A stretch of DNA of 64,000 bases from Ignavibacteriaceae bacterium. Its GTDB lineage: Bacteria; Bacteroidota; Ignavibacteria; Ignavibacteriales; Ignavibacteriaceae. The stretch spans positions 1,447 through 65,446 of the forward strand of contig JBATOT010000125.1 in assembly GCA_049291095.1 (NCBI GenBank). The letters run 5' to 3'. How positions within the stretch are numbered: the stretch's first letter is position 1; each line of letters opens with the position of its first letter. A model generated the notes under the pieces. The model ran no database searches and was not told where the DNA came from. It worked only from the letters and a program-made list of their open reading frames with translations. The position numbers and the translations under genes were made by a program. This document shows positions 7,309 to 39,834 of the stretch, piece after piece.

Positions 7309-7382
7309 TCGGGGTGATAGGATTCGAACCTACGGCCTCTTCGTCCCGAACGAAGCGCGCTACCGGGCTGCGCTACACCCCG
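7309..7382 (-). tRNA. tRNA-Pro (anticodon CGG)
   Basis: The minus strand reads CGGGGTG-TA-GCGC-AGCCCGGTA-GCGC-G-CTTCG-TTCGGGA-CGAAG-AGGCC-GTAGG-TTCGAAT-CCTAT-CACCCCG-A. This is a full 74-nt cloverleaf with anticodon loop U-CGG-G. No CCA is encoded. Confidence 0.93.
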
Positions 7383-10693: not shown

Positions 10694-10774
10694 CTAAAAT
10701 TGATTTAGTTAAGTGCTCAGAGATTGTCCATTTTATTATACAACTCATTCAAATAAATAGCTTTTTTATTAAAT

Positions 10775-10804
10775 AATGCCACTTATTTTAGTGGCATTTC
10801 TTTT
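10775..10804 (+). terminator. Rho-independent terminator after pyrC
   Basis: AATGCCAC-TTATTTTA-GTGGCATT followed by TCTTTT. Confidence 0.7.
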
Positions 10805-10848
10805 GGCTCACCTAATCAGAAATCGAAATTATACTAAAGGTGAACAAA

Positions 10849-11661: not shown

Positions 11662-11663
11662 TT

Positions 11664-11726
11664 AAGAATTTATTACTTTTGTCGTGGATTTGTACCAGAA
11701 ATTGGAAACGAGCCCACGACATTCTT
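11664..11726. repeat. Palindromic REP-like element (GTCGTGG...CCACGAC with outer AAGAAT/ATTCTT arms)
   Basis: AAGAAT (11664-11669) and GTCGTGG (11681-11687) pair with CCACGAC (11714-11720) and ATTCTT (11721-11726). The element creates the spurious N-terminal extension (MSWICTRNWKRAHD) of the ORF called at 11679. Confidence 0.6.
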
Positions 11727-11732
11727 ATATAT

Positions 11733-12176
11733 ATGAAAAAATATTTTTACATAATAATAATCTTACTTTCAGTTTCAGTTTCCTTTTCTCAAACCTCTAA
11801 TCTTACCAGGAAAACTGAAACAAGAAAAGAATCTCAACAAGAATATCCGATTTTTAAAGAAATTGAAACTGGAATTAAGGAAGCAAAAGTTAACAGAATT
11901 TCAAAATACTTTGGACAGCAAACTTATTTTAGTTTTTCAAATGGAATAAATGGGTACTATAGCAGTAACCAGGCTTTTTATGTTTTGCAAGATTATTTTA
12001 ATCTCTATAAGGTCACTTCATTTAAATTTGATTATATAAAGGCAGATAAAATTAGTGGACATGCTACCGGTAATTATAATTATGATAATAAGGGACAGAG
12101 AAGTACTGCACAGGTTTACATTTCGATAAAAAAAATTGGCAATAATTGGATTATAACTCAATTTACAATTAACTAA
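11733..12176 (+). CDS. Secreted hypothetical protein (possibly DUF4783/NTF2-like fold)
   Basis: Signal peptide MKKYFYIIIILLSVSVSFSQ starting at ATG 11733, which lies after the REP hairpin. The family call is from memory of similar small Bacteroidota proteins and is weak. Confidence 0.45.
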   Translation: MKKYFYIIIILLSVSVSFSQTSNLTRKTETRKESQQEYPIFKEIETGIKEAKVNRISKYFGQQTYFSFSNGINGYYSSNQAFYVLQDYFNLYKVTSFKFDYIKADKISGHATGNYNYDNKGQRSTAQVYISIKKIGNNWIITQFTIN

Positions 12177-25383: not shown

Positions 25384-26091
25384 ATGGTAGCAGTAATTGG
25401 AGATATTCACGGTTGCTATTTTACTTTAAAAAATCTGGTTGAAAAAATTATAGTCAAGTATCCGGATATTCCGATTTATTGCGTAGGTGATCTTGTGGAT
25501 AGGGGAAATTACTGTTTTGAAGTGATAGAATATATAAAATCTAAAAACATTCAGTGTGTTATTGGTAATCACGATTATATGTTTTACTCTAATATGCGAG
25601 ATCCATTTAGCATAATGGCAAAATCATGGAACTATAATGGGTCTGAAACTACTCTGATATCCTACAAAGACAAACTTAACCAAATGGATGAACATCTAGA
25701 TTTTATTATAAGCCTTCCTCTCTTTTACAATCTTAATGACTGTTTTATTTCGCATGCAGGAATTGCAAAATCTATAAAAAGTAAACTTCCTGAAAATATT
25801 TTGGATGATGATGCCAAGTTGAATAAAATATTAAGTGATGATTTATTTAACCAAAATAGTATAATCTGGACGCGGAGTGATTTACTAAATATCGGCAAAC
25901 TTCAGGTAGTAGGGCACACACACCGCAAAGAAGTTTATTTTGATAAAGATTCAAATGCAATATTTATCGATACAACAGCATTTGGTAATAATATGCTTAG
26001 TGCCGCAATAATTGATCAAAGCTGCCTGGTAGAAATTATCTATGAAAAAACTTGTATTGACGATGTAAATAAAAATTGGATCAGATTTTAG
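25384..26091 (+). CDS. Metallophosphoesterase (PPP-family Ser/Thr phosphatase / ApaH-like)
   Basis: Motifs GDIHGC, GDLVDRG, GNHD and ..VGHTH. Confidence 0.8.
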   Translation: MVAVIGDIHGCYFTLKNLVEKIIVKYPDIPIYCVGDLVDRGNYCFEVIEYIKSKNIQCVIGNHDYMFYSNMRDPFSIMAKSWNYNGSETTLISYKDKLNQMDEHLDFIISLPLFYNLNDCFISHAGIAKSIKSKLPENILDDDAKLNKILSDDLFNQNSIIWTRSDLLNIGKLQVVGHTHRKEVYFDKDSNAIFIDTTAFGNNMLSAAIIDQSCLVEIIYEKTCIDDVNKNWIRF

Positions 26092-26113: not shown

Positions 26114-27478
26114 TTATTCTTCCGGGAATGATTGTATAGAAAGCTTATCCAGTTTACTTCTAAGAGTTGTGCGTGGAATTTTTAAAATCTTTGCTGCGCC
26201 GGTAACATTATTTCCGGACTTATCTAATGCCCAGTTAATTATTTGTTTCTCTTTTGATAAAATGTACTTATCAAATCCATCATATTCTGCAAAAGAATCA
26301 GTTTTTGATTTTTCAATTTCCTTACTGTTTAACAATGGATCTAGAACAGATGTATTTAAATATTGATTGGGTGACAGTGCAATAATCCTTTCTGTTATAT
26401 TTTCAAGTTCTCTTACATTGCCTGGCCAATCGTATTTGTTAAGTAATGAATAAATGTTATCATCCACATACTGAATTTTTCCTTCAGCACCATGTTTTTT
26501 TAAGAAATGTATAAGCAATTCAGGAATATCCTCTTTTCTATCTCTAAGAGGTGGAAGAACAATTGGGATAATGTTTAATCTGTAATAAAGATCTTCACGA
26601 AAAAGTTTTTTGTCGACACGTTCTTTAAGATCAACCTTTGTTGCACAAACAATTCGCACATCAATGGGTATATTTTCAGTGCTGCCAACACGCGAAATCT
26701 CTTTTTCCTGCAGCACACGCAATAATTTTACTTGCATAGTCAAGGGAAGATCATCAATATCATCAAGCAGCAATGTACCGCCGTTGGCTTTTTCAAAATA
26801 TCCAATATGTCTTTTTACTGCGCCAGTAAAAGCCCCTTTCTCGTGCCCAAACAATTCACTTTCAATTAGTGTTTCCGGAATTACGGCACAGTTAATTGCA
26901 ATAAAATCTTTCTCCTTCCGTAATGAAAGATTATGGATTGTTCGTGCACATAATTCTTTACCTGTTCCGCTTTCACCCTGGATTAAAACGGTATAATCTT
27001 GTGGAGCGATCATATTAATCATATCAAGAAAAGCTTTTACCTTTGTAGATGAACCGATTATATTCTTCTTTTCAAAAAGTTCTAGCCTGCTTTTTAGCTT
27101 TACATTTTCTGAGAGTACATTACTTAGCTGCTCAATGTGTTTTAAAATACTTAATAACTGCTCAGGTGAAAAAGGTTTAAGCAAGTAATCATATGCTCCA
27201 AGTTTTAATGATTCGATTGCTGTTTCGATGGTTGCATAAGCGGTAATAATTATCACAATAATATTCGTATCAATCTCTTTTGCTGATTTTAAAATATCCA
27301 GGCCATTAGTACCTGGTAACCTAAGATCAGTTACTACAACATCATACTTATTGCTTTTTAATGAATTAAGTGCTTCAGTTCCATCTCCGAAGCTACTCAC
27401 ATCGTAATTCTCTTTTTTTAGAATATCTGTTAAAGTTTTTCTAGTAATTTTTTCATCTTCAACTAACATTATTTTCAT
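26114..27478 (-). CDS. Sigma-54-dependent response regulator (NtrC family: REC-AAA+-HTH)
   Basis: Receiver domain (VVVTDLRLPG), Walker A GESGTGKE, sigma-54 contact loop GAFTGA (EKGAFTGAV), and a C-terminal Fis-type HTH (AAKILKIPRTTLRSKL). Confidence 0.93.
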   Translation of the reverse strand: MKIMLVEDEKITRKTLTDILKKENYDVSSFGDGTEALNSLKSNKYDVVVTDLRLPGTNGLDILKSAKEIDTNIIVIIITAYATIETAIESLKLGAYDYLLKPFSPEQLLSILKHIEQLSNVLSENVKLKSRLELFEKKNIIGSSTKVKAFLDMINMIAPQDYTVLIQGESGTGKELCARTIHNLSLRKEKDFIAINCAVIPETLIESELFGHEKGAFTGAVKRHIGYFEKANGGTLLLDDIDDLPLTMQVKLLRVLQEKEISRVGSTENIPIDVRIVCATKVDLKERVDKKLFREDLYYRLNIIPIVLPPLRDRKEDIPELLIHFLKKHGAEGKIQYVDDNIYSLLNKYDWPGNVRELENITERIIALSPNQYLNTSVLDPLLNSKEIEKSKTDSFAEYDGFDKYILSKEKQIINWALDKSGNNVTGAAKILKIPRTTLRSKLDKLSIQSFPEE

Positions 27479-28934
27479 ACTTAACCTCTGTTGGTAGAAT
27501 TACAGTAAAAATTGTTTGATTGTTTGGAATAGAACTAACAGTTATTTGTCCGTTATGATTTTCAACAATCCCAAGACTAACCCAAAGACCTAATCCTGTT
27601 CCTTCACCTTGATCTTTAGTTGTGTAAAATGGATCAAATATTTTATTCAGTTCATTTTCATTTAATCCGGTACCATTATCGCTGATAGAAAAGAAAATGT
27701 ATTTAGGGTCTTTAACACCTGTTTGAATTTTTATTTTGCCTCTATCTGCAGTTGCATCATAAGCATTGATTAAAATATTCATAATAACTTCCTGTATTAG
27801 CTGACTATCAGCACTGATTAGTGGAATATTTTCCAGTAAATCTAAATCAACAACAGTTTGTTTTTGCTTTAATTTATACTCAAGAAGTTTGTAAACATTA
27901 ATTATCAATTCATTAATATTTATGGAATCGGTTATCTGTGTTTGCTGTCGAGCAAAGCCGAGCAGCTTTTTAATTACATTTTCTATGTAATTCATTCCTT
28001 CATTTATAAGAGATAAATATTCAGTGGTTTGCTCTTTATTATCAGGCTCCTTTTGGATTGCATACAAACAGTTTTTTATACCATTTAACGGATTATTTAT
28101 TTCATGAGCTACTCCGGAGGCAAGCCTTCCGATTGATGCCAATTTTTCTGATTGATAAACTTGTTTTTGTGCTGTTGCCAACTGCTGTTTAGATAACTTC
28201 AATCTTTTTAGTAAATCATCAAACCGATTGATAAGAAAACCAATCTCATCCTTGTTACCTTTAAGAGTTATCTCCTCGATGGATTTAAAATCAATTTTGT
28301 CAATCTGATTAACCAAACTATTTAATTTATATGTTACTTTGTCAATCAGAAAATATAAGACAGTTAGTGTAACAATTGAGAGTAGAATTGTCAGTGAAAG
28401 GAGAATAACAAAAATACTATTTATTTCTCCCCTTATCGGTTCAGCATCAAACCCGATTTTTACAACGCCCCATTTCTTTTTAGCAATTTTTAGTGGAGCG
28501 TAAGCATCAAGCAGCCAGCCGTATTCCTTAGATTTATAAATTATACTTTCATATCTGTTTGATTTTATGTTTTCATCAGTTTTATTATTTGGAAAAGATG
28601 TTATTCCACTTCTATCTTTCCCGGCGATAATCCAATTGTTGATATCGTATATTTCAATATACTTTATGTTTGTAACTCTTTGCATGTAATTATCAATATA
28701 CGATTCAAGTAAATCATCTTTTAATAATTCCCGCTGCTCTGCGTAAATAAGTGCATCAAGCGCCGGAACTGTAAAAGCATCTACAACAGATTGAGCGTTG
28801 ATAACTTCTTTTTCAATGAGAATTTTTCTCCATTGAAAAAGAATGGCTAATGAAATCAGCATCATTATTAATAGAATTACAGAGCCAGTTACAAAAAGTA
28901 TACGTGTTTTTAAACTATGATGGATAGGAATCAT
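27459..28934 (-). CDS. Sensor histidine kinase (2 TM, periplasmic sensor domain, HisKA-HATPase)
   Basis: H-box SGVAHEINNPLN and G boxes (DNGTGL, GTGLGL). It overlaps the downstream NtrC-type gene by 20 nt. Confidence 0.9.
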   Translation of the reverse strand: MIPIHHSLKTRILFVTGSVILLIMMLISLAILFQWRKILIEKEVINAQSVVDAFTVPALDALIYAEQRELLKDDLLESYIDNYMQRVTNIKYIEIYDINNWIIAGKDRSGITSFPNNKTDENIKSNRYESIIYKSKEYGWLLDAYAPLKIAKKKWGVVKIGFDAEPIRGEINSIFVILLSLTILLSIVTLTVLYFLIDKVTYKLNSLVNQIDKIDFKSIEEITLKGNKDEIGFLINRFDDLLKRLKLSKQQLATAQKQVYQSEKLASIGRLASGVAHEINNPLNGIKNCLYAIQKEPDNKEQTTEYLSLINEGMNYIENVIKKLLGFARQQTQITDSININELIINVYKLLEYKLKQKQTVVDLDLLENIPLISADSQLIQEVIMNILINAYDATADRGKIKIQTGVKDPKYIFFSISDNGTGLNENELNKIFDPFYTTKDQGEGTGLGLWVSLGIVENHNGQITVSSIPNNQTIFTVILPTEVKYENNVS

Positions 28935-28936
28935 TA

Positions 28937-29890
28937 TTATTGCCCCGAATATTTTCTTATCAAATCATAATCACTGTCTTTTGCTTCAACAAAACCAAAT
29001 GTAAATTCACTATCCCACGATTTAACAAGCTCTTTGTATTTAGCTTCATTTAAATTGATTTTTAATAACTGTGATTTGATAGTATTGATTATTTCTTCAT
29101 CATAATCTTTTACTGAAACGATTGGTGAACCAGGAACAGGTTCGGAGAATCCGATTATTTTTATTCCCTTGTCTCTATATTCTCTAATCACTCTATCTTT
29201 AACTACTCCAGCATCAAAACTTCCACTAAGTACCTGGTAAACCACATTTTGATGATAAGCAAAATTTTTAATTTCTTTAATATCTTTTTCCTGGGTATTG
29301 TATTTCAACAGTTCGTACTTGATTAACCAGTTTCCTGAAAAAGATTCTTCCGATGGTAATGCGATTCGTTTACCCCTTAAATCTTTAATTGAATTTATAC
29401 TCGATTCGCTTTTTACAAAAGCAACAGATCTAAAAAATGGTTTAAAATCTTCATTCAACGGTTTTAAAATTGGAATTATCCCATAACGCTCGTGAGCATT
29501 TATGTAAAGAAATGTCCCAAAAAATGCAACAGCTACTTCTCCCTTAATTAATTGATTAACAGTTTCATTGTATGAAGTGCTTAGTTTTAATTCAAAATGA
29601 TATTTTTCATTTTGATTTAAATAATCAATAATAGGCTGGTAGCCTTTGAAAATTATATTAGGTGGATAGCGGGAAATTACTCCAACATAAACAACAAGTT
29701 TTTGTTTCTCTAACAAAGATTCTGCTTCTTGTTTTTTTACAGGAATTTTTGTTGAAATATCAATTGCTGAATTATAAAAAAGAAATGTTGCCGATGAACC
29801 AACTACAATAAAAAACAAAAGTGAAAGTAAAAATTCTTTTCTGAACATAAATGAATGACTATCCAAATATTTGTTTTTAACTAACTTCAA
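28937..29890 (-). CDS. PhnD-like (phosphate/phosphonate-type) periplasmic substrate-binding protein, first gene of the sensor operon
   Basis: 317 aa with an N-terminal TM/signal segment. The type-2 periplasmic binding fold pattern (...VAFFGTFLYINA..., GKRIALPSEESFSGN) resembles PhnD-family SBPs. Its stop lies 2 nt before the kinase start. Confidence 0.6.
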   Translation of the reverse strand: MKLVKNKYLDSHSFMFRKEFLLSLLFFIVVGSSATFLFYNSAIDISTKIPVKKQEAESLLEKQKLVVYVGVISRYPPNIIFKGYQPIIDYLNQNEKYHFELKLSTSYNETVNQLIKGEVAVAFFGTFLYINAHERYGIIPILKPLNEDFKPFFRSVAFVKSESSINSIKDLRGKRIALPSEESFSGNWLIKYELLKYNTQEKDIKEIKNFAYHQNVVYQVLSGSFDAGVVKDRVIREYRDKGIKIIGFSEPVPGSPIVSVKDYDEEIINTIKSQLLKINLNEAKYKELVKSWDSEFTFGFVEAKDSDYDLIRKYSGQ

Positions 29891-29948
29891 ATTTCAGTCC
29901 TAATAATCATTTCATTTTCTTTTTTTATTCCAATTCAAACCTAAATAA

Positions 29949-29994
29949 AATGACGAATAATCGCCAGACTGACGACGAAATACTGACAACGAAA
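29949..29994. promoter_or_regulatory. Candidate enhancer (UAS) for the sigma-54 activator: direct repeats plus an imperfect palindrome
   Basis: ACTGACGACGAAA (29968-29980) and ACTGACAACGAAA (29982-29994) are 12/13 identical with a 14-bp period. A weaker third copy AATGACGAATAA lies at 29949-29960. The palindrome TCGcCAGaCTGaCGA lies at 29961-29975. The site is centred about 110 bp upstream of the -24 element. Confidence 0.4.
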
Positions 29995-30079
29995 GCTTAT
30001 ATTTGATTTAATACGAGGAAAATTCTAGCGATACAATCAATATTTTAAGTTATTTATGGTTTCTCAAAGTAATTTCTCG

Positions 30080-30095
30080 GGGCATTATCCTTGCT
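30080..30095 (+). promoter_or_regulatory. Sigma-54 (-24/-12) promoter
   Basis: GGGCATTATCCTTGCT against the consensus TGGCACG-N4-TTGCW. GG at 30081-30082 and GC at 30093-30094 have the exact 12-nt register. It lies 37 nt upstream of ATG 30132, with AAGGAG SD at 30121-30126. The adjacent divergent operon encodes a GAFTGA activator. Confidence 0.65.
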
Positions 30096-30131
30096 AAAAC
30101 TTTATAACTATTTCAATTAAAAGGAGTTCAA

Positions 30132-30716
30132 ATGGAAAATATCATACCGCGCTGGGAATGGCGTACCTTTACGAACGATCTTGGAAAAGCAGAAGAAAAT
30201 ATTAAAAAACATCCTGAAGGAAAAACGCGTGAGAGTGATGAGGTCTATATTCTATCAGAAGTTAGTATGGATAATACAAAGGTGCGCGATGATTTGATGG
30301 ATATTAAAACTTTGCAGCAAGTTAATGAGGATAGATTAGAACAATGGCTCCCAATTATGAAAGGTTCCTTTCCGCTGCCGGTATCTGAAATTGAAAAAGT
30401 ATTTAAATGTTTTAAAGTAGCACTCCCGAAGTTTGACAGGACCGAATATACTTTTAAACAATATCTTGATGAAGTTATTGCTCCCTCTAAACTATTAAAA
30501 GCTGTAAATGTGCATAAGAAAAGAACAGGTTACACAATTAATAATACCATTGTAGAAATTGCAGAAGTAACAGTTGATGGTAAAGTTATTAAAACAGCTG
30601 CTGTTGAAATGGAAGATCCGGCTTTAGTTATTAAAACTGTTAGAGAACTAGAGCTAGATAAATTTCCAAATATTAATTATTTGCGTGGATTAAAAAATCT
30701 TGTTGGAATGAAATAG
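30132..30716 (+). CDS. Divergent CYTH-like (triphosphate tunnel metalloenzyme-like) protein
   Basis: 194 aa. The charged-strand pattern resembles a CYTH tunnel: N-terminal WEWRTF in place of ExExK, then VRDDLMDIK, VHKKRTGY, VEIAEV and AAVEMED. It is immediately followed by a canonical CYTH gene. The assignment is by pattern only. Confidence 0.4.
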   Translation: MENIIPRWEWRTFTNDLGKAEENIKKHPEGKTRESDEVYILSEVSMDNTKVRDDLMDIKTLQQVNEDRLEQWLPIMKGSFPLPVSEIEKVFKCFKVALPKFDRTEYTFKQYLDEVIAPSKLLKAVNVHKKRTGYTINNTIVEIAEVTVDGKVIKTAAVEMEDPALVIKTVRELELDKFPNINYLRGLKNLVGMK

Positions 30717-30726
30717 GAGTATAACA

Positions 30727-31194
30727 ATGGCAAATGAAATAGAACGTAAATTTTTGGTTAAAGGTGAGTTTAAAAATCTTGCGAGTAAAGAAACCAGAAT
30801 TGTGCAAGGTTATCTTTCCTCTGTACCGGAAAGAACAGTACGTGTTCGTATTAAAGGTGATAAGGGATTTATTACTATAAAAGGAATCGGAAATACTTCT
30901 GGTGCTACGAGATATGAATGGGAAAAAGAACTTCCGACTAACGAAGTTGAGGAATTATTAAAAATTTGTGAACCGGGTGTGATAGATAAAACAAGATATC
31001 TTGTAAAAGTCGGAGATCACACTTATGAGGTTGATGAGTTTTATGGCGAGAATAAAGGATTAACTGTTGCTGAAATTGAATTAAGTTCAGAATCGGAAGC
31101 ATTTGTGAAACCAGCTTGGTTAGGCGATGAAGTGACCGGTGATGTTAAATATTATAATTCAATGCTTATGAAAAATCCTTTTACCAAATGGTAG
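30727..31194 (+). CDS. CYTH domain protein (triphosphate tunnel metalloenzyme)
   Basis: Canonical N-terminal EIERKFLV (ExExK) motif, then RVRIKGDKGFITIKG, YEWEKE, YEVDEF and VAEIEL. The size (155 aa) is typical of stand-alone bacterial CYTH/TTM proteins. Confidence 0.85.
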   Translation: MANEIERKFLVKGEFKNLASKETRIVQGYLSSVPERTVRVRIKGDKGFITIKGIGNTSGATRYEWEKELPTNEVEELLKICEPGVIDKTRYLVKVGDHTYEVDEFYGENKGLTVAEIELSSESEAFVKPAWLGDEVTGDVKYYNSMLMKNPFTKW

Positions 31195-31244
31195 AATTAA
31201 TTTTAATATAATCATAAATTTTTTTATCAAATTATAAAAATTAT

Positions 31245-32840
31245 ATGACAAAATTTGATCCGCTTGATATGAATAACTATCGTATCGAGAAACTTCCGAA
31301 ACGTGATAAATCAAAATTTGAAAAGTGGCTTGCGATTATTGGACCAATATTAGCATTTGCTGCTTTTATTTTGTTCGCATTTATCATAAAACTACCTTTT
31401 CTTGAAACAATAAATTCATCAGATTTAGTTTCAGAATCCGCTAAAAAAGCTTTTGATAAAATTGGTTCAGCCTCGTTTATCAGAACCAATGAATTTATGC
31501 TTGCAATCTTTGCTGCTTCAATTATTCTTTGGATGACTGAAGCCATTCCAAATTATCTTACTTCTCTTTTATTAATTATAAGTCTTGTTCTAACGGGAGT
31601 ATTATCTGAAAAAGTTGCTTACGCTCAACTTGGGCATCCCGTAATGTGGCTAAATATTATGTCTTTTGTTCTAGCAAGTATGTTAGTTGTAACAGGGCTT
31701 GCAAAAAGATTTGCACTTTGGTTAATTATCAAGTTTGGAAAGAATGCCAGTACAATATTTATAAGTTTTCTAATTATAAATCTTGTACTCTCTGCTTTTA
31801 TATCTGCAACAACTGCAAAAGCTGCAATATTGCTTCCGATATTTATGGTGATAGCTGCAATTTACGGTGCTAAATCTGGTGCAAAAAGAAATAATTTTGG
31901 ACGAAGTATCGTATTGCAAAATCTTTTGTACATAAATATTGGTGCGGGTGCTTTTGTTACAGGATCAGGAGCAAATCTGCTTGCAGCAGCTATTATTGGT
32001 GGTGCAATTGGTGGTAACATTTTCTTTTCAGATTGGATGATGGCAATGTTTCCAATAATGGTTTCATTAATGTTTATTGGTTATCTATTAGCGATGAAGA
32101 TTTTTTTTCCATTGGCGCCTGAAGAACGTTTACCCCAAATTGAAGGAGGAATGGAAAGACTAAAGCAGGAATATGAAAAACTTGGTTCGATTAATTTTTT
32201 GGAAATTAAATCAGCAATAATTTTTATTGCTATACTTTCATTATGGGCTACTGACAATATTCATGGAATTAGTGCTACAGCAGTTGCTTTTGTTGGAGCT
32301 ATCGTTGCATTGTTACCAAAAATAGGAATTGTAAAATGGAATGAAGTAGATATTCCATGGCATCTTATGTTATTCTCAGCTGGTGCTTATACACTAGGAG
32401 CGGGATTGGACGCCACAGATCTTCCATCAATCGCTGTAAATGCTTTTTTTGATCATCTTGGAATCGGAGATCACACAAGTTTTTGGATTTTATACTTACT
32501 GTTAACTGGAGTTATGATTTTTAGCGCACTTATATTTCAATCAAAAACGATGCGTGCAATGATATTTATACCGATTGCAATTGGTGTTGCAAACAGATTT
32601 GGATTTGATATTGTTAGTCTTGCATTACCGGTTGCTTTTATGATTGAACATGTTTATGTATTACCATTTAATAGTAAACCAGCCGCGTTGCTTTACGAAA
32701 CGGACCAGTACAGTTTAACGGATACTTTTAAATACGGTTTTACAATGATGGTTGTTTCGTGGTTATTGATTATTGCTGCCGGCGAAACCTGGTTTAGATA
32801 TTTAGGAATTACACCAAATGGGGTTTTTGGAATCTTTTAA
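31245..32840 (+). CDS. DASS/SLC13-family anion:sodium symporter-like permease
   Basis: 531 aa and polytopic. It has the two-fold repeat architecture and segments typical of DASS/ArsB-NhaD-type permeases (ILWMTEAIPNYLTSLL..., SATTAKAAILLPI, VLPFNSKPAA). Confidence 0.7.
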   Translation: MTKFDPLDMNNYRIEKLPKRDKSKFEKWLAIIGPILAFAAFILFAFIIKLPFLETINSSDLVSESAKKAFDKIGSASFIRTNEFMLAIFAASIILWMTEAIPNYLTSLLLIISLVLTGVLSEKVAYAQLGHPVMWLNIMSFVLASMLVVTGLAKRFALWLIIKFGKNASTIFISFLIINLVLSAFISATTAKAAILLPIFMVIAAIYGAKSGAKRNNFGRSIVLQNLLYINIGAGAFVTGSGANLLAAAIIGGAIGGNIFFSDWMMAMFPIMVSLMFIGYLLAMKIFFPLAPEERLPQIEGGMERLKQEYEKLGSINFLEIKSAIIFIAILSLWATDNIHGISATAVAFVGAIVALLPKIGIVKWNEVDIPWHLMLFSAGAYTLGAGLDATDLPSIAVNAFFDHLGIGDHTSFWILYLLLTGVMIFSALIFQSKTMRAMIFIPIAIGVANRFGFDIVSLALPVAFMIEHVYVLPFNSKPAALLYETDQYSLTDTFKYGFTMMVVSWLLIIAAGETWFRYLGITPNGVFGIF

Positions 32841-32912
32841 TTCTTAATAAGTATTTGAAAAATAATTTTAACTAAACAAGAAGTTGAAATTTTATAAAAG
32901 GACGGAAGCTAT

Positions 32913-33551
32913 ATGTTTTTAAAGAAAACGAGAAAACTAGAAACTCAGATAGACGAATATCTTGATCTGGTAATAACCGGTGGACTTATTTTTAAATTAG
33001 GAATTCGATGTTATCTGGATAATCAAACCGAAGCATTTGAAGGTCATTTGAAAGATCTGAGAAAGATTGAGGACACAGCGGATGATTTACGAAGAAACAT
33101 TGAAATAAAACTTTACAGCCGAACATTAATTCCGGAAGCAAGAGGGGATGTGCTCGGATTATTGGAAAGTTGTGACAAAGTTTTAAATATCACCGAAGAA
33201 ACACTTTTAGAGTTCTCTGTTGAAATACCAAATCTATTGCCTGAACTTAAAAATGATTTTATTGATATAGCTGAAAGTTCAATCGCTTGTCTTGAAAATA
33301 CTGTTAGCGGTATAAGAGCATACTTTAAAAATGTGGATGCCGTTAGAGATTATGTAACTAAAGTTCAGTTCTACAAAAAAGAAACTAATAAAGTTGCGGA
33401 AAGAATAAAACGAACTGTATTTAGAACAGATCATGAACTAAGTTTTAAAATTCACACACGTTATTTTACTTTTCATATTGAACGAATCGCAGAGCAATCT
33501 GAGGATGTTTGTGACAGACTTTCGATTGCCATAATTAAAAGGTTAGAATAG
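32913..33551 (+). CDS. DUF47 / PhoU-like protein (PiT-associated)
   Basis: 212-aa helical protein placed immediately upstream of a PiT transporter (2-nt gap), which is the conserved DUF47-PiT gene pair. ED-rich motifs (EDTADDLRR, AEQSEDVCD) resemble PhoU repeats. Confidence 0.75.
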   Translation: MFLKKTRKLETQIDEYLDLVITGGLIFKLGIRCYLDNQTEAFEGHLKDLRKIEDTADDLRRNIEIKLYSRTLIPEARGDVLGLLESCDKVLNITEETLLEFSVEIPNLLPELKNDFIDIAESSIACLENTVSGIRAYFKNVDAVRDYVTKVQFYKKETNKVAERIKRTVFRTDHELSFKIHTRYFTFHIERIAEQSEDVCDRLSIAIIKRLE

Positions 33552-33553
33552 AA

Positions 33554-35053
33554 TTGGATATTTCAGTTTGGTTTTTCATTAGCAGTGGTTTATTTCTTGG
33601 ATGGTCGTTAGGTGCCAACCATGCAGTAAACGTTTTTGGCACTGCTGTTGTATCCAAAATGGTCAAGTTTAGAACTGCAGCTATAATATCCGGAATATTT
33701 GTTATACTCGGTTCCGTTATAAGCGGTGCAGGCACAACAAAAACTTTAACTGATCTAGGTTCTATAAACGCTATTGCAGGCAGCTTTTCAGTTGCCTTGG
33801 CCGTTGGCATTTCTGTTACATTAATGACAAGAGCCAAATTACCTGTTTCAACTTCTCAAGCTGTAATCGGCGGCATTATCGGTTGGAATATTTTTACAGG
33901 ATCGCCGACTGATTATAATTCTTTAACTAAAATTTTATTTAGCTGGGTTGCTTCTCCGGTTATAGCCGCAATATTTGGTTTTTTAATTTTTAAGCTGATG
34001 AAAAAAACAGTTTTAAAATGGAAAATCCATCTTCTTAGATTAGATAATTATACAAGAATCGGATTAATTGTTGTAGGTGCTTTAGCCTCATACTCTTTAG
34101 GTGCAAATAATATTGCAAATGTAATGGGAATGTTTGCATCAGCTCCTTTATTCAAGGATCTGAACATTGGTAATATTATAACTATTTCAAGTGTGCATCA
34201 ATTATTTTTATTGGGGGGCATAGCTATTGCAATAGGTATATTTACATACGGCAATAATGTGATGGAAACAGTTGGAACTGATTTATATAAGATATCACCA
34301 ATCACTGGTTTTGTAGTTGTGCTTGCAGAATTTATTGTTCTGTTCCTATTTACATCTCAAACTCTTGAGGCATTTTTATTAAAAAATAATTTGCCTTCGT
34401 TTCCATTAGTTCCTCTTTCCACAACGCAAGCCTTTATAGGCGCTGTAATTGGTGTTGGTGTTGCCAAGGATCCATCATCAATTAATTTTAAAGTCTTAGG
34501 TAAGATTGCAATTGGCTGGGGTGTGGCTCCGCTAACTGCAGGTCTAATCACCTTCATATCTTTATTTTTTATACAAAATGTTTTTGAACAAAAAATTATT
34601 CATCCGGTTCCTTATGAAATTACAAAATCCGTAATATCAAAGTTGAATGATGAAGGTATTGAAACGAAACGGATAAATGATTTGGTTGGTAAAAGATTCG
34701 TGAACAATAAAAATTTCTTAAACGAACTTAAAAACAGATACGATTACGATAGTAAGCAGATATACTCAATATTTAATTATGCGCTGATCGATAGTTTTAA
34801 AATAGATTCAACATTAATTAATTCTCTGCCCGAAAATTATGATTTTACTATAGCGGAAAAATTTCAGTTGAAAGAACTTCATGGCAAATCATTTAATCAT
34901 AAAATAGATTTTGAAGATGCAATTTCTTCCAATTTGCCTATGTGGAGTTTAACAGACGATAAATTAAAAAACAAAGTAATCCTCGAAAAGCGGATTATAA
35001 TTGAAGATCTTTTCAGGGTTTCTATAAAAACTAAAAGTACAAACAGTTATTAA
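33554..35053 (+). CDS. Inorganic phosphate transporter, PiT family, with soluble C-terminal extension of about 150 aa
   Basis: Both PiT signature repeats are present (GANHAVNVFGTAV and GANNIANVMGMF). The TM region ends near aa 345. The remaining roughly 150 aa are hydrophilic. TTG start. Confidence 0.85.
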   Translation: MDISVWFFISSGLFLGWSLGANHAVNVFGTAVVSKMVKFRTAAIISGIFVILGSVISGAGTTKTLTDLGSINAIAGSFSVALAVGISVTLMTRAKLPVSTSQAVIGGIIGWNIFTGSPTDYNSLTKILFSWVASPVIAAIFGFLIFKLMKKTVLKWKIHLLRLDNYTRIGLIVVGALASYSLGANNIANVMGMFASAPLFKDLNIGNIITISSVHQLFLLGGIAIAIGIFTYGNNVMETVGTDLYKISPITGFVVVLAEFIVLFLFTSQTLEAFLLKNNLPSFPLVPLSTTQAFIGAVIGVGVAKDPSSINFKVLGKIAIGWGVAPLTAGLITFISLFFIQNVFEQKIIHPVPYEITKSVISKLNDEGIETKRINDLVGKRFVNNKNFLNELKNRYDYDSKQIYSIFNYALIDSFKIDSTLINSLPENYDFTIAEKFQLKELHGKSFNHKIDFEDAISSNLPMWSLTDDKLKNKVILEKRIIIEDLFRVSIKTKSTNSY

Positions 35054-35073
35054 TAAAAGTTAGAGGAGATGTA

Positions 35074-36357
35074 ATGAATAACAAAAGAAATCTAATGCTC
35101 GTTATTGTAATCTCTCTGCTTTCAATTCTTGGATTGAATGAATTGATGGCCCAGGATTCCAAAGTGCCAGGTGGGGATCAAAGATACCCGCTTGGAGCAG
35201 AAATGCGAAATGGTAAACTTGTTTTTGAATCAGAGAACGGAGATTTCCGCTGGTGGTTCGATTCAAGAATTCAATTTGATGGCGCAATGTATTTTGAAAA
35301 TAAAAATGCAATGAGTAATGGTGTACATTTAAGAAGAGCAACATTTGCTCTTAAAGCTTTGCTATGGAAAGACTGGCAAGCCGAAGTTGATATTGATTTT
35401 GCTGAAGCTGTTTCAACTAATTCTCAAGTTGAACTTAGAGATATGTGGATTAAATATACTTTCCCAAAATTAAATTTTTCTTTGCAGGCAGGTAATTTTA
35501 AAGAACCTTTTGGAATGGAAAGGCTTAATAGTTCAAGACTACTTACTTTTCTTGAACGTACAGCAATCTCCAATGCTTTACCTATGGGAAGACGTGTTGG
35601 AATTTCTGCAAGATACTGGACTGATTTTGCTCAAGTTACAGCAGCAATTATGGGTCACGAAACCGGAACACGTATTGATAAAGGGCAACGTGATGAAACA
35701 TTTTCAACAAATATTCGTACTTCAATTGCACCAATAAATTACTTTGGACAAAATCTTCACATTGGTTTAGCGTATTCTTATAAACTGCCTGATGTTACTT
35801 CTGAATTAAGAGCAAACACTGTTGAAATAAATGCAAGAACAGAAAGCTACGTTGCAAATCCAAAATTGTTGCATACAGGTGATATTTCAGATGTTAATTA
35901 TTATAATCGCTATGGTGCCGAACTAATGTATATAAATGGTCCATTTTATTTCCAATCCGAATTTATGGGCACAAGTATTTACAGATGGTATGCTAAACCA
36001 ACCGTAAATTTAAAAGGTGGTTATGTAATGGCTGCCTGGATGATAACAGGTGAAAATCGTTTTTATTATGTGGACGAAGGTGAAGTAGGACCAATCGAAA
36101 CTCCAAAAAATTCTTTCGGTGCATTTGAATTTGCTGCCAGATATAGCGTTACAAATCTTAATGATTTGGATACAGATATTAAAGGCGGACAATCAAATCA
36201 ATTAATGCTGGGTCTAAACTATTATCCAAATCCTAATATCAAACTACAATTCAATTATTCAATTGTAAACCTTGATGAATTCGCAACTCGAAAAGGAAAT
36301 TTATTAGGTGGTGATGATCACTCATTTATTCAAATGCGTATTCAAGCATCATTATAA
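35074..36357 (+). CDS. Phosphate-selective porin O/P family outer-membrane protein
   Basis: Signal peptide followed by FRWWFDSRIQFDGAMY, FKEPFGMERLNSSR, LGLNYYPNPNIKLQFNY. The alternating beta-strand pattern and motifs are typical of OprO/OprP-type porins. Confidence 0.8.
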   Translation: MNNKRNLMLVIVISLLSILGLNELMAQDSKVPGGDQRYPLGAEMRNGKLVFESENGDFRWWFDSRIQFDGAMYFENKNAMSNGVHLRRATFALKALLWKDWQAEVDIDFAEAVSTNSQVELRDMWIKYTFPKLNFSLQAGNFKEPFGMERLNSSRLLTFLERTAISNALPMGRRVGISARYWTDFAQVTAAIMGHETGTRIDKGQRDETFSTNIRTSIAPINYFGQNLHIGLAYSYKLPDVTSELRANTVEINARTESYVANPKLLHTGDISDVNYYNRYGAELMYINGPFYFQSEFMGTSIYRWYAKPTVNLKGGYVMAAWMITGENRFYYVDEGEVGPIETPKNSFGAFEFAARYSVTNLNDLDTDIKGGQSNQLMLGLNYYPNPNIKLQFNYSIVNLDEFATRKGNLLGGDDHSFIQMRIQASL

Positions 36358-36370
36358 AAAGGAGATTAAG

Positions 36371-37291
36371 ATGAAAAGAATATTATTATTTACATTATTT
36401 GTTTTTTCAGGTTTGTTTCTATCTTGTTCCAGAGAGGAACCATTCGTTGCACCTGTTCCGCCACCACCAGAAATTAATGTTGTGATTAATGAAGTGTACT
36501 CACGTGGTAACGATGCAAATCCAGACTGGATAGAAATCTTTAATCCATCTTTAGCACAAAAGGATCTAAGTGGATACAAAATTTATGATTCAGGTGGACA
36601 GGCTGGTAGCAAACCGAAAAAAGAATTTCCCCAAGGAACAATTATTCCAGCTGGTGGAATATTAGTAATTGTTGTTGATGATACACTTGATAGTGGTTTT
36701 GGTTTATCTTCAAGTGGTGAAACAGTTTGGTTAGAAAATGCAGCCAGTTCGATAATCGATAGTGTATTTTTTCCTGTTTTAGGTGTTGATTCTTCATATG
36801 GCAGAATGCCAGATGGAGCGACAACTTGGAGTATTATTTATCCAGCCACAAAGGGTTCAAAAAATGATTCAACAATAACTGCTAATCTTCCTATTGTTGT
36901 AAACGAAATTTTCTCACGAGGAATCGCTACTGACCCTGACTGGGTAGAAATTTATAACCCTAATCAAATCCAGGTGAATGTTTCTGGTTATAAGATTTAT
37001 GATTCTGGTGGACAAGCGGGAACAAAACCAAAGAAGGAATTTCCTGTTGGTTCATTTGTTCCTGCAAATGGTTTTTTAGTGATTGTAGTAGATGATACTG
37101 CATCAAGTGGTTTTGGATTATCGAGTGGTGGTGAAACTCTATGGTTTGAAAAACCGGATGGATCACTAATTAACGAAGTTCAGTTTCCTGCAATGCCAGT
37201 TGAAACAACTTCCTATGGAAGAATTCCGGATGGTAGTGAAAACTGGTTGATTTGCAATACAATTACAAAAACTGCACCTAATCAACAGTAA
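36371..37291 (+). CDS. Lipoprotein with two lamin-tail domains (LTD)
   Basis: Lipobox FSGLFLSC. There are two LTD repeats, VINEVYSRGNDANPDWIEIFNPS... and VVNEIFSRGIATDPDWVEIYNPN..., and each contains GYKIYDSGGQAG(S/T)KPKKEFP. ATG at 36371 after GGAG. The 36308 extension overlaps the porin gene. Confidence 0.85.
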   Translation: MKRILLFTLFVFSGLFLSCSREEPFVAPVPPPPEINVVINEVYSRGNDANPDWIEIFNPSLAQKDLSGYKIYDSGGQAGSKPKKEFPQGTIIPAGGILVIVVDDTLDSGFGLSSSGETVWLENAASSIIDSVFFPVLGVDSSYGRMPDGATTWSIIYPATKGSKNDSTITANLPIVVNEIFSRGIATDPDWVEIYNPNQIQVNVSGYKIYDSGGQAGTKPKKEFPVGSFVPANGFLVIVVDDTASSGFGLSSGGETLWFEKPDGSLINEVQFPAMPVETTSYGRIPDGSENWLICNTITKTAPNQQ

Positions 37292-37300
37292 AAAATAATA

Positions 37301-37340
37301 TGAGAATCAGGCTTACCTGATTCTCATTTTATTTATTTTT
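37301..37340 (+). terminator. Strong rho-independent terminator closing the sigma-54 operon
   Basis: Perfect 11-bp stem TGAGAATCAGG-CTTA-CCTGATTCTCA followed by TTTTATTTATTTTT. Confidence 0.85.
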
Positions 37341-37345
37341 AATTA

Positions 37346-38107
37346 ATGAAAAAAAATATAATTCTAAAAAGATTTGCTAATCTACTAATTATAATCATTT
37401 TATTAGGTTGCTCCAGAGATGATAGTTATAATAATACAGATCCTCCGGAAATAGAGTTAATTAATCCATTACAAGAATTCAGTCTCACCATCTCTGAACC
37501 TTCAGCAGTTGCGTATAATTCTGTTAACAATTCTTTAATGATTGTATCTGACGGAAGCCCAATTATATATGAGGTAGGTTTTGATGGTTCAGTAATTTCA
37601 TCCTTCACTACAACTTGTTCTGATCTTGAGGGTATAACGCTCTCAAAAAATTGTGACACGATTTATGTAACACAAGAAAAGAAAAAACTTGTAACAGCTT
37701 TAAACCTTAGTGGTAATACTCTGTATTCCTTTTTAGTTGATGTTGCTATATCTGATAACAGTGCTTTGGAAGGTATATCAATCAATAAAAATAATAACCA
37801 TTTATTTGTGATAAATGAAAAAGATCCAATAATGTTGTTGGAATTTCTTGGAACAACAGAGATTAGCAGAATATTGATTGATAAGGTATCAGATATTTCA
37901 GATGTGTTTTATGAAGAATCGTCAAATTCAATATGGATTATTAGTGATGAATCCCAAAAAATTCTCAAATATTCTTCCTCCGGGGTGTTTATTAAAGAAT
38001 GGAAAATTCCCTTTACAAAAGGTGAAGGATTAACAATTGTTGGCAATAAGATGTATATAGTAAATGATAGTAATGCAAAACTGTATGTTTTTAACAAAGC
38101 AAGTTAA
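37346..38107 (+). CDS. SdiA-regulated / YjiK-like beta-propeller lipoprotein
   Basis: Lipobox IILLGCS. Repeated motifs (EPSAVAYNSVNNSLMIVSD, DLEGITL, ALEGISINKNNNHLFVINEKDP, SDISDVFYEESSNSIWIISDES, GEGLTIVGNKMYIVNDSN) are typical of the SdiA-regulated domain family. Confidence 0.7.
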   Translation: MKKNIILKRFANLLIIIILLGCSRDDSYNNTDPPEIELINPLQEFSLTISEPSAVAYNSVNNSLMIVSDGSPIIYEVGFDGSVISSFTTTCSDLEGITLSKNCDTIYVTQEKKKLVTALNLSGNTLYSFLVDVAISDNSALEGISINKNNNHLFVINEKDPIMLLEFLGTTEISRILIDKVSDISDVFYEESSNSIWIISDESQKILKYSSSGVFIKEWKIPFTKGEGLTIVGNKMYIVNDSNAKLYVFNKAS

Positions 38108-38253: not shown

Positions 38254-39834
38254 ATGAAAAAAAATGTTTTACTTTTAATTGTTTCGCTATTTGTAATTTT
38301 AATGATGCAAACCAGTTTTGCAATTTCACCTTTAATGAACGAATTATTCTCCAGGGGGACCGCAGTAGAATTGGACTGGATTGAAATTTATAACGCATCT
38401 TCTAACCCTTTTGATATCTCTGGATATAAGATTTATGATATTGGTGGACAGAGCGGATCAAAACCGAAAAAAGTTTTTCCAGCAGGCAGTATTATTCCAG
38501 CAAATGGTTTTTTAGTTATTATCGTTGATGATACTTCCGAGAGTGGTTTTGGCTTATCTAGCAATGGTGAACGAGTTTGGTTTGAAACTGATGCGGGCTT
38601 AATCATTGATAGTGTGGATCTAATTGCAATTACAGATCTCGAGGCATCTTATGGAAGAGTTCCTGATGGAAGCTCAAACTTCCAAATAATTTCTCCAAGA
38701 ACTCGTGGAACAGCTAATGGTACTTTGGATTTTCCGGTTGTTATGAATGAGTTATTTTCGAGGGGCACAAATGATGAACCCGATTGGATAGAAATTTACA
38801 ATTCTTCAGCCACGTCTTTTGATATTTCAGGATGCAAAATTTATGATAGTGGCGGATTTAATGGAACAAAACCTAAAAAAGAATTTCCTGCTGGATCTGT
38901 TATACCTGCAAATGGATTTTTAGTGATTATGGTTGATGATACTGCTGCTAGTGGTTTCGGGCTTTCGAGCAGCGGAGAAAAAGTTTGGTTTGAAAATGCT
39001 TCAGGAGAAATTTTAGATAGTGTTGATCTAATTGCTATCACTGATACAGCAGCATCCTATGGAAGATTACCGGACGGAAGTGATAACTGGCAAACATTGG
39101 TACCGAGAACTCGCGGTTATTCAAATGTACCCGTTAGTGCTGTAGTTTTGATCAACGAGTTGTTTTCAAGAGGAATAGAATCGGAACTTGATTGGATAGA
39201 AATATACAACTCTTCAGTGTCTCCCGTAGATATTTCAGGATATAAAATTTACGATGGTGGTGGAAATGCTGGAACTAAACCTAAAAAAGAATTTCCGGCT
39301 GGTTCAGTTATTCCTGCAAATGGATTTTTAGTAATTATTGTAGATGATACTGCTGCAAGTGGTTTTGGATTATCAAGCGGTGGAGAAAAAGTCTGGTTTG
39401 AAAATGCAACTGGAGCAATAATAGACAGTGTAGATTTGGTTGCTATAACAGATACAGCTGCTTCCTTTGGAAGATATCCTGATGGAAGTGCAAACTGGCA
39501 GATACTAATTCCGAGAACCCGTGGAGTTGCAAACATGTTGACTGCTGTTGAGGATGAAATTCAACAAATTTCTGAGTTTAGATTAAATCAAAATTATCCA
39601 AACCCTTTTAATCCAGCTACAACAATAAGTTTTACTATTGCCGCAACTAGTGATGTTACATTAAAAGTGTTTAATGTCCTTGGAAAAGAAGTTGCTACTG
39701 TTGTTAATGAAATGAAAAGTGCCGGAAATTATTCTATAATCTTTAATTCTAGCGGATTAAGCAGTGGAGTCTATTTCTATCAGTTAAAAGCTGATAATAT
39801 TGTTTTAACAAAGAAATTTGTTTTGATGAAATAA
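38254..39834 (+). CDS. Secreted protein with three tandem lamin-tail domains and a T9SS C-terminal sorting domain
   Basis: Signal peptide, then 3 LTD units of 136 aa each, then a C-terminal NQNYPNPFNPATTISF...GVYFYQLKADNIVLTKKFVLMK typical of T9SS CTDs. Confidence 0.9.
   Translation: MKKNVLLLIVSLFVILMMQTSFAISPLMNELFSRGTAVELDWIEIYNASSNPFDISGYKIYDIGGQSGSKPKKVFPAGSIIPANGFLVIIVDDTSESGFGLSSNGERVWFETDAGLIIDSVDLIAITDLEASYGRVPDGSSNFQIISPRTRGTANGTLDFPVVMNELFSRGTNDEPDWIEIYNSSATSFDISGCKIYDSGGFNGTKPKKEFPAGSVIPANGFLVIMVDDTAASGFGLSSSGEKVWFENASGEILDSVDLIAITDTAASYGRLPDGSDNWQTLVPRTRGYSNVPVSAVVLINELFSRGIESELDWIEIYNSSVSPVDISGYKIYDGGGNAGTKPKKEFPAGSVIPANGFLVIIVDDTAASGFGLSSGGEKVWFENATGAIIDSVDLVAITDTAASFGRYPDGSANWQILIPRTRGVANMLTAVEDEIQQISEFRLNQNYPNPFNPATTISFTIAATSDVTLKVFNVLGKEVATVVNEMKSAGNYSIIFNSSGLSSGVYFYQLKADNIVLTKKFVLMK
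38335..39550 (+). repeat. Three tandem 408-nt coding repeats (LTD units)
   Basis: Units start at 38335 (MNELFSRGT), 38743 (MNELFSRGT) and 39151 (INELFSRGI). Long identical peptide runs occur, e.g. GTKPKKEFPAGSVIPANGFLVI and VDDTAASGFGLSS.GEKVWFENA. Confidence 0.85.

Follow-up and report, generated by a model that had tools for sequence, protein, structure and literature searches.

A conserved, probable phosphorus-acquisition locus of Ignavibacteriota with a proposed XSR-type three-component system and sigma-54 operon

We analyzed a 64-kb stretch of DNA (hereafter "the window") from a metagenome-assembled genome (MAG) of an uncultured Ignavibacteriaceae bacterium, in which three tightly packed minus-strand genes diverge, across 241 bp, from a string of phosphate-related plus-strand genes (Table 1). 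The minus-strand genes encode, in the order of transcription, a periplasmic substrate-binding protein (SBP), a sensor histidine kinase (HK), and a sigma-54 enhancer-binding protein (EBP), while the first of the facing genes, orfA, encodes a protein that looks like a triphosphate-tunnel protein in its predicted fold. Overall, the cluster is probably a conserved phosphorus-acquisition locus in which a three-component system of the "XSR" type drives a sigma-54 operon. Its gene families and their arrangement recur across genomes, with the layout present in about 45 species genomes of Ignavibacteriota, as do a promoter motif and an operator motif located between the two divergent gene sets. The new element is the target, i.e., a predicted operon for the uptake and hydrolysis of phosphate or condensed phosphate; the regulatory design itself is known.

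In textbooks, bacterial phosphate control is the work of PhoR-PhoB and Pst, and this locus suggests a different wiring in a whole phylum and several others. Ignavibacteriota are common in sediments, wastewater, and anammox or enhanced biological phosphorus removal reactors, and the design of receptor, kinase, and sigma-54 activator has so far been documented for arsenic respiration.

Conservation of the locus within and beyond Ignavibacteriota

Contigs carrying SBP homologues of 64%, 49%, and 47% identity displayed the same gene order on both sides. Scanning with an OrfA alignment, one genome per species, yielded 80 loci, which were tabulated by tblastn. Sensor genes adjoin orfA in 44 of the 53 Ignavibacteriota-type loci, and all 11 genes occur in the same order in 30 of these 53. 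Wherever related loci include sensor genes, HK and EBP directly follow SBP. The core, i.e., EBP, HK, and SBP divergent from orfA-CYTH-DASS-(DUF47-PiT)-porin (DASS, divalent anion:Na+ symporter), was also found outside Ignavibacteriota, namely in Krumholzibacteria (L060, L062), Eisenbacteria (L067), Acidobacteriota (L077), and unclassified MAGs (L074, L084). Conservation of the neighborhood, which the original prediction made from the window sequence had named as a check, thus extends across Ignavibacteriota and into other phyla.

Within the window, the HK gene starts 2 nt past the SBP stop, and the HK and EBP genes overlap by 20 nt. These coordinates, together with Pfam matches for all three proteins, bear out the earlier reading of the minus strand as an operon for a binding protein, a kinase, and a GAFTGA-containing activator. 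On the plus strand, eight genes with gaps of at most 72 nt had been proposed: the largest gap is indeed 72 nt, and the genes lying between promoter and terminator number seven.

Promoter and candidate operator motifs

The -24/-12 promoter proposed in the 241-bp divergent region held up, with the correct GG-N10-GC spacing. The motif GGCAYN5TTGC has two matches in the 64-kb window against 0.38 expected. The other exact match, GGCATAGCTATTGC at 34217-34230 (+), lies inside the PiT gene and is probably due to chance rather than an internal sigma-54 site.

When the divergent intergenic regions of related loci were aligned on the promoter, the -24/-12 element was located 33–68 nt 5' of orfA in nearly all loci, high-GC phyla included (e.g., GGGCACGGTCATTGCC, AGGCATGCAGATTGCA), and 42 of the 47 distinct regions contained its core GG[CT]A[CT]N5TTG, versus 0.5% of shuffles. 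Further upstream, ~95–130 nt 5' of this element, related loci carry one to three tandem palindromes of the form GRCGR-N4-YCGYC. The divergent intergenic regions, 17.8 kb in total, hold 58 of these sites, versus 12 in 843 kb of flanks, i.e., 3.25 vs 0.014 per kb or a ~230-fold enrichment, with at least one site in 41 of 50 loci. The form shifts from GACGA...TCGTC/TCGCC in low-GC genomes to GGCGA...TCGCC in high-GC phyla, with unchanged spacing. In the window, the two palindromes sit ~100–125 bp 5' of the -24 element, and the exact one, GACGAATAATCGCC, is the sole exact match to GRCGAN4TCGYC in the 64 kb. For activators of the NtrC family, tandem dyads located ~100 bp 5' of a -24/-12 promoter are the usual layout. 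Taken together, the promoter element and the palindromes support a tie between activator and operon, and we infer that the window EBP binds the GRCGR-N4-YCGYC sites. A scan of the whole window against Rfam returned no leader or riboswitch near the operon, and its single match was one tRNA.

These motifs bear on the alternative of a shared gene order without shared control, in which the sensor genes would regulate other targets and the -24/-12 match would be accidental. Nine of the 53 Ignavibacteriota-type loci lack adjacent sensor genes (some of them being cut by a contig end), and single -24/-12 matches do arise by chance. However, the linkage spans phyla, the promoter core and the operator are conserved and enriched as described above, and both motifs are kept where the sensor genes are unlinked, i.e., Melioribacteraceae-type loci with non-adjacent sensor genes retain both palindromes and the -24/-12 element. 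We thus strongly disfavor this explanation, and its chance seems close to negligible. The functional link, which had been derived from gene order alone, now has a conserved promoter, palindromes, and a cross-phylum neighborhood beside it.

A PhnD/ArrX-type sensor in an XSR-type system

SBP belongs to the "Phosphonate-bd" family (PF12974, E 4.6e-51) and carries an N-terminal membrane anchor; an alternative ATG start is located at ~29848. No ABC partner genes (phnC/phnE-like) were found near SBP within the cluster. Because of this absence, and because SBP always directly precedes HK and EBP, we regard it as an orphan protein and the presumed sensor of the system. HK displays Pfam matches to HisKA (8.9e-12) and HATPase_c (2.8e-23), a weak one to sCache_3_2 (3e-4), and AtoS as its top NCBIfam match; hydropathy analysis placed its transmembrane segments at residues ~7–40 and ~167–202, enclosing a periplasmic domain of ~125 aa. 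EBP combines Response_reg (5.8e-31), Sigma54_activat (3.1e-71), and HTH_8 (8.5e-09) domains, i.e., a Fis-type helix-turn-helix, with the GAFTGA motif at residue 215. Its top NCBIfam matches were NtrC and AtoC, both under their equivalog cut-offs.

In a PDB sequence search, the nearest solved relative of SBP was the Chrysiogenes arsenatis protein ArrX (E 8e-21); PtxB came second, and AioX was distant. The AlphaFold (AF2) model of SBP (pLDDT 86.5) was matched by Foldseek to PtxB, ArrX, HtxB, AioX, and PhnD, among which ArrX had the top TM-score (0.81–0.83) and identity (26–27%). Residues Y107, Y129, S183, S185, H213, and D226, at oxyanion-pocket positions, are invariant in 27 orthologues. Of the pocket residues of the AioX subfamily (Tyr, Cys, Tyr, Ser, Ser, His, Asp), all but the Cys are thus kept, and the position of this Cys (Cys106) is taken by an invariant G125, as in PtxB/PhnD. 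Since the Tyr, Tyr, Ser, Ser, His, and Asp positions are invariant and the Cys is replaced by Gly as in PtxB/PhnD, the pocket residues suggest that SBP is built to hold a tetrahedral oxyanion of the P type or As(V) type. The ligand may be inorganic phosphate (Pi) or a short condensed phosphate such as pyrophosphate (PPi) or triphosphate (PPPi), the latter being somewhat more likely.

The design of a kinase coupled to a binding protein and paired with an enhancer-binding protein, presented by the original prediction as not described before, is already known from AioXSR/ArxXSR (PMC5908839) and PgtABC (PMC9306846). AioX, ArxX, and ArrX are PF12974-type binding proteins and form the first component of X-S-R signaling systems, in which AioR and ArxR are AtoC-type sigma-54 activators at RpoN promoters (Badilla et al. 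2018, PMC5908839). The window system shares with AioXSR/ArxXSR a PF12974 protein without a transporter, an adjacent kinase, an AtoC-type sigma-54 activator, and an RpoN promoter with an upstream site; for the promoter and activator sites, the architecture matches at the motif level. The pocket positions Tyr, Tyr, Ser, Ser, His, and Asp are likewise conserved. The differences are that the window system is linked to genes of phosphate-related transport and hydrolysis rather than to arsenic-respiration molybdoenzymes, that the pocket Cys is a Gly, that identity to AioX is much lower than to ArrX, and that the lineage is Ignavibacteriota rather than Proteobacteria or Chrysiogenetes. ArrR, unlike the window EBP, is not a sigma-54 activator.

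ArrX binds arsenate at 1 uM and, more weakly, phosphate at 150 uM (PMC5908839). As the top PDB sequence match of SBP, it raises the possibility of an arsenate sensor like that of ArrXSR, with an operon that handles arsenate stress at the phosphate entry routes; arsenate does enter cells via phosphate transporters. Yet neither the cluster nor the conserved flanks contain ars, arr, aio, or arx genes, more PiT and phosphate porin would let more arsenate in, and SBP has the invariant Gly at Cys106 along with its low identity to ArrX. With arsenic genes absent from the cluster and the pocket Cys absent from the protein, we rejected the arsenic reading, which appears very improbable.

The PgtA-PgtB-PgtC system of Salmonella controls the phosphoglycerate transporter PgtP and is induced by external substrate (PMC9306846). 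The likeness to the window system lies in a third protein that modulates a kinase, which in turn activates an NtrC-family regulator, so that a transporter of a phosphorylated compound is induced. Matches of the window proteins to the PgtA (EBP) and PgtB (HK) models are distant (176 vs 650 and 112 vs 1000 bits, the second value being the equivalog cut-off), and the target of PgtABC differs in being a single antiporter gene.

OrfA, a conserved protein with a tunnel-like predicted fold

Pfam supports every family assignment of the original prediction except that of OrfA, which had been counted as one of two CYTH/triphosphate-tunnel genes: the second of these is a PF01928 member, whereas the first is similar to triphosphate tunnel metalloenzymes (TTM) in predicted fold alone. 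OrfA has no Pfam or NCBIfam match even at E 0.01 and no PDB sequence match by phmmer, and a profile-profile comparison of its family with the neighboring CYTH family was negative (hhalign probability 0.2). In all four tests, sequence thus gave no link between OrfA and CYTH. In its AF2 model (pLDDT 78), the first Foldseek matches were thiamine triphosphatase (ThTPase) and TTM/CYTH enzymes (probability 1.0, TM-score ~0.45), and the top 30 PDB matches were mostly ThTPase/TTM, at TM-scores of just 0.4–0.5 and with Mediator Med18/20 interspersed. The modeled fold appears barrel-like, as in NeuTTM (the inorganic triphosphatase of Nitrosomonas europaea) and other CYTH proteins.

The OrfA family comprises 1326 representatives at 50% clustering. 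OrfA is the most conserved gene product of the cluster, with 85–96% identity among the listed Ignavibacteriota homologues. R7, E9, and R11 are invariant in the family, and E37, R52, K59, K129, R131, E142, and E159 nearly so. These charges form a tunnel-like set, but with RxExR in place of the ExExK motif.

Gene context points to a role for OrfA. Fusions were seen among the proteins P0287, P0306, P0309, P0319, P0339, and P0353: in several metagenomic proteins the OrfA domain is N-terminal to Ppx/GppA, and in one (P0353) it is C-terminal to a fragment of a SulP-type sulfate permease. Longer OrfA homologues have C-terminal extensions that share a ~100-aa segment and, in 4 of 10, lack a Pfam match; these extensions are best explained as pieces of the fused Ppx. 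Some stand-alone OrfA copies are labeled exopolyphosphatase by JGI, a label that probably stems from the Ppx/GppA fusions. In Spirochaetes, Clostridia, Synergistes, and Atribacterota, orfA is followed by a Ppx/GppA gene (~305 aa) and by tctC-tctB-tctA (L059, L063, L066, L069-L073, L075, L076, L079-L083, L085; operons at ~10001-15500 in most of their loci); the Acidobacteriaceae loci of this set show the orfA-Ppx pair only. Sigma-54 motifs are absent from these loci. Judging by this gene order, the TctCBA systems may carry a polyanion, possibly condensed phosphate. Chiefly because its recurrent neighbors are a hydrolase of condensed phosphate and a secondary transporter for polyanions, we favor a role of OrfA in condensed-phosphate handling. 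Beyond its EBP gene, one Ignavibacteriales locus (L019) carries a second orfA-CYTH pair, with identities of 70% and 72%.

Alternatively, OrfA and the CYTH protein could serve in signaling or storage control instead of catabolism, monitoring or setting cytoplasmic pools of PPPi, polyphosphate (polyP), or nucleotides and tuning PiT and DASS, which would make the locus a homeostasis unit for Pi only. The median identity of OrfA (90%, versus 48% for the sensor) would suit a protein constrained by many interactions, RxExR replaces its metal-binding motif, its domain is fused to a transporter fragment in P0353, and DUF47 itself is described as a family of PhoU-like modulators. Against this, the CYTH protein keeps all aligned NeuTTM signature positions, OrfA keeps a full set of tunnel residues, both basic and acidic, and in other lineages it is regularly paired with members of a genuine exopolyphosphatase family. 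We thus consider this alternative rather improbable.

Triphosphatase-like protein, carriers, and porin

The phosphorus theme of the original prediction is well founded, given a NeuTTM-like second gene, a porin matching OprO/OprP, and OrfA relatives associated with Ppx/GppA. The second protein of the operon is a clear CYTH member (PF01928 1.4e-13, 51.5 bits vs a cut-off of 23.2), whose ExExK motif reads EIERK. Residues 1–147 of its 155 align end to end with PDB 3typ and 2fbl (NE1496) at ~1e-18, with the ExExK, RxR, K, KxR, and ExE signature positions kept. We take 2fbl (NE1496) to be NeuTTM, and we know of no transport operon in which NeuTTM occurs. According to PMC3440374, the CYTH enzyme of Nitrosomonas europaea acts specifically as an inorganic triphosphatase, and by its sequence, the window protein resembles a NeuTTM-like triphosphatase.

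The DASS protein matches Na_sulph_symp (PF00939 5.2e-53, 181 bits vs 27) and TIGR00785 (202.6 bits vs a cut-off of 198.6). Its PDB relatives include VcINDY, SLC13 proteins, and the plant DiT, and the solved relatives carry di-/tricarboxylates or sulfate. Two variants, of ~80–90% or ~40% identity to the window protein, occupy the DASS slot in otherwise near-identical operons (seen in L004, L012, L017, L020, L023, L024, and others). L004 also has, between DASS and DUF47, an extra 262-aa gene without a Pfam match (6307-7095).

Pairs of DUF47 (PhoU_div) and PiT are known from orfA-pit of Sinorhizobium and ykaA-pit of Bacillus. As in these, the DUF47 and PHO4 genes of the window are adjacent, and they are nearly translationally coupled, the PiT start lying 2 nt past the DUF47 stop. 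The window pair differs in being placed inside a larger sigma-54 operon with DASS, tunnel enzymes, and a porin.

The porin (PF07396 3e-54, 185 bits) matches OprO (4rjw, 3e-18) and OprP (2o4v, 4.5e-18) about equally. Compared with the arginine/lysine ladder of OprO/OprP, R59, R60, S124, and S125 are retained, and an R stands opposite K121. Positions 62/114, which set the OprP subtype (Y/Y) apart from OprO (F/D), are T/K in an alignment that is merely indicative at this similarity. Assignment to either subtype was dropped, as T/K fits neither.

The Pho regulon under PhoR-PhoB, including OprO/OprP of Pseudomonas, resembles the locus functionally in its phosphate porin, phosphate transport, and surface or secreted P-scavenging proteins. 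It differs in regulation: in place of an OmpR-type PhoB that uses Pho boxes and sigma-70, the window has an NtrC-type AAA+ regulator and a -24/-12 promoter, and sensing apparently proceeds by a dedicated periplasmic receptor rather than by the Pst-PhoU pathway. No pst genes (PstSCAB) were found in the cluster. The locus does not appear to be a member of the canonical Pho regulon, as its adjacent regulator is of the NtrC type; no search was made for phoBR elsewhere in the genome. A limited literature search found no earlier description of such a sigma-54 phosphate regulon, and a study of phosphate limitation in Desulfovibrio alaskensis, considered as a precedent, was irrelevant on inspection.

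The main alternative to induction by substrate is a Pi-starvation regulon, similar in operation to PhoR-PhoB but built from other parts, in which SBP would sense Pi, HK would be active when SBP is empty, and the operon would scavenge at low Pi. OprO/P porins and secreted phosphoester-related proteins are typically induced by starvation, the phytase-like and lamin-tail domain (LTD) surface proteins are syntenic with the operon, and ArrX, the nearest solved relative of SBP, does bind phosphate. On the other hand, the characterized relatives AioXSR and PgtABC are switched on by the presence of their ligand, PiT and DASS are secondary carriers (PiT-type ones usually being the low-affinity route), and the high-affinity PstSCAB is missing from the cluster. 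Starvation control thus retains a real though minor chance.

Terminator hairpin, surface proteins, and downstream genes

A terminator had been proposed to close the gene string. The hairpin itself was confirmed, with a 12-bp stem and a T tract, and the conserved cluster runs two genes further, to position 39834, both post-hairpin genes being syntenic in relatives. A strong hairpin of unrelated sequence occupies the same position in ~30 of 45 related loci with a measurable gap. Given this recurrence, we regard the hairpin as a genuine terminator or attenuator whose position is conserved.

The last gene before the hairpin, for the LTD lipoprotein, probably starts at ~36371 (MKRILL..., lipobox LFLSC) and not at the GTG at 36308, from which the reading frame is open. 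Pfam detected no nuclease or phosphatase domain in the LTD proteins, and the suggested scavenging of extracellular DNA thus found no support. The phytase-like lipoprotein beyond the hairpin has a weak PDB match to YjiK. A further LTD protein of the window, combining a CotH kinase domain with a lamin-tail domain, is encoded at 58748-61039 (-).

Proposed mechanism

In the mechanism that we propose, the orphan, membrane-anchored SBP would capture a phosphate-type oxyanion in the periplasm. The ligand-loaded SBP would then activate the adjacent HK with its two transmembrane segments, and HK would phosphorylate EBP. EBP would bind the tandem GRCGR-N4-YCGYC palindromes and promote open-complex formation by sigma-54 RNA polymerase at the -24/-12 promoter. 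The resulting seven-gene transcript would provide an OprO/P-type outer-membrane channel, the inner-membrane importers DASS and PiT with DUF47, a surface LTD lipoprotein, and two cytoplasmic proteins, OrfA and the NeuTTM-like triphosphatase, which may release Pi from imported or cellular condensed phosphate. The conserved hairpin would lower or end transcription before the genes for the phytase-like lipoprotein and the LTD protein exported by the type IX secretion system. By analogy with AioXSR and PgtABC, the operon is expected to be induced by the ligand. Several points of this scheme are inferred: the co-transcription of the genes, the binding of the palindromes by EBP, which ligand SBP recognizes and in which direction the operon responds to it, and what DASS, OrfA, and the porin act on.

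A more specific version of this mechanism would be a pathway for the substrate-induced uptake and splitting of condensed inorganic phosphates, i.e., PPi, PPPi, and short polyP. Here, a PhnD-type receptor would be combined with an OprO-like channel and with a DASS protein that carries the intact polyanion, and OrfA, founding a new triphosphate-tunnel family, would release cytoplasmic Pi together with the NeuTTM-like triphosphatase. In other phyla, TctCBA would replace DASS (Spirochaetes, Clostridia, Synergistes, Atribacterota, Acidobacteria), and Ppx would replace the NeuTTM-like enzyme. To our knowledge, no bacterial equivalent of such a pathway has been described. We put this version forward tentatively and consider it rather unlikely.

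Several observations weigh against the proposed mechanism or parts of it. Among the structural neighbors of SBP, the ligands range over phosphite, phosphonates, Pi, arsenate, arsenite, ATP, and glycerophosphate, and with such variety within PF12974, no single ligand can be assigned to SBP. We also know of no DASS member that carries condensed phosphate. In OrfA, RxExR stands in for ExExK, with the first Glu and the Lys missing, and the protein may not be a hydrolase. On the regulatory side, a sizeable minority of loci have GA, GG, or GT instead of GC at -12, and the second palindrome of the window is degenerate. A probe for rpoN gave no match within the 64-kb window or 85 related loci, and literature searches yielded nothing on rpoN in Ignavibacteria; the intact GAFTGA activator leads us to presume that the genome encodes RpoN. 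Finally, because a strong hairpin separates them, the last two genes, although linked to the cluster, may be expressed separately, outside the regulon.

OrfA is a well-defined target for the question of how bacteria import or sense tri-/polyphosphate, and the predicted operator, promoter, and receptor could yield a biosensor for phosphate species.

Features of the locus and other genes of the window

Coordinates and assignments are collected in Table 1; SBP, OrfA, CYTH, and EBP are identical to the NCBI proteins whose accessions are given there.

Table 1. Features of the phosphorus-acquisition locus and its surroundings, in window positions, with median identities of the encoded proteins across the 30 complete loci.
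Feature	Position	Strand	Basis	Median identity
tRNA gene, only Rfam match in the window	7309-7382	-	Rfam	
Calcineurin-like metallophosphoesterase gene, convergent with the EBP gene	25384-26091	+		
EBP, NtrC/AtoC-type sigma-54 enhancer-binding response regulator	26114-27478	-	Pfam, NCBIfam; MFZ1520242.1	58%
HK, sensor histidine kinase with two transmembrane segments	27459-28934	-	Pfam, NCBIfam, hydropathy	48%
SBP, membrane-anchored orphan PhnD/ArrX-type periplasmic binding protein	28937-29890	-	PF12974; MFZ1520244.1	48%
Candidate activator-binding site, exact palindrome GACGAATAATCGCC	29952-29965		Motif	
Candidate activator-binding site, second, degenerate palindrome	29974-29987		Motif, 22 bp from GACGAATAATCGCC	
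Sigma-54 type -24/-12 promoter GGGCATTATCCTTGCT	30080-30095	+	Motif, GG-N10-GC spacing, 36 nt 5' of the orfA ATG	
OrfA, triphosphate-tunnel-like protein	30132-30716	+	Predicted fold; MFZ1520245.1 (NCBI "hypothetical protein")	90%
CYTH protein, 155 aa, resembling the NeuTTM inorganic triphosphatase	30727-31194	+	PF01928; MFZ1520246.1	85%
DASS (2.A.47) inner-membrane transporter	31245-32840	+	PF00939, TIGR00785	80%
PhoU_div/DUF47 accessory protein of PiT	32913-33551	+	PF01865 1.3e-18	82%
PiT (PHO4) inorganic phosphate transporter	33554-35053	+	PF01384 4.5e-62	70%
OprO/OprP-family anion-specific outer-membrane porin, signal peptide	35074-36357	+	PF07396	71%
Lipoprotein with two lamin-tail domains	36371-37291	+	LTD, two stretches (1.6e-27)	
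Intrinsic terminator or attenuator hairpin	37300-37337	+	12-bp stem (37300-37327) and T tract	
Lipoprotein, SdiA-regulated/phytase-like beta-propeller, lipobox LLGC	37346-38107	+	PF06977 6e-24, PF13449 9e-09	
Secreted protein, three LTD repeats, C-terminal sorting domain for type IX secretion	38254-39834	+	LTD 3.8e-38, Por_Secre_tail 9e-12	

The metallophosphoesterase gene next to the EBP gene is syntenic in 13 of the 30 complete loci, which may reflect a functional relation or merely conserved gene order. Elsewhere in the window, a histidine kinase of 1279 aa is encoded at 12176-16015 (+), in a region of 27–28% GC, and its first ~990 residues have no Pfam match. It is followed by a gene for a UvrD helicase/PD-(D/E)XK nuclease (AddA-like) at 16019-19600 (+).

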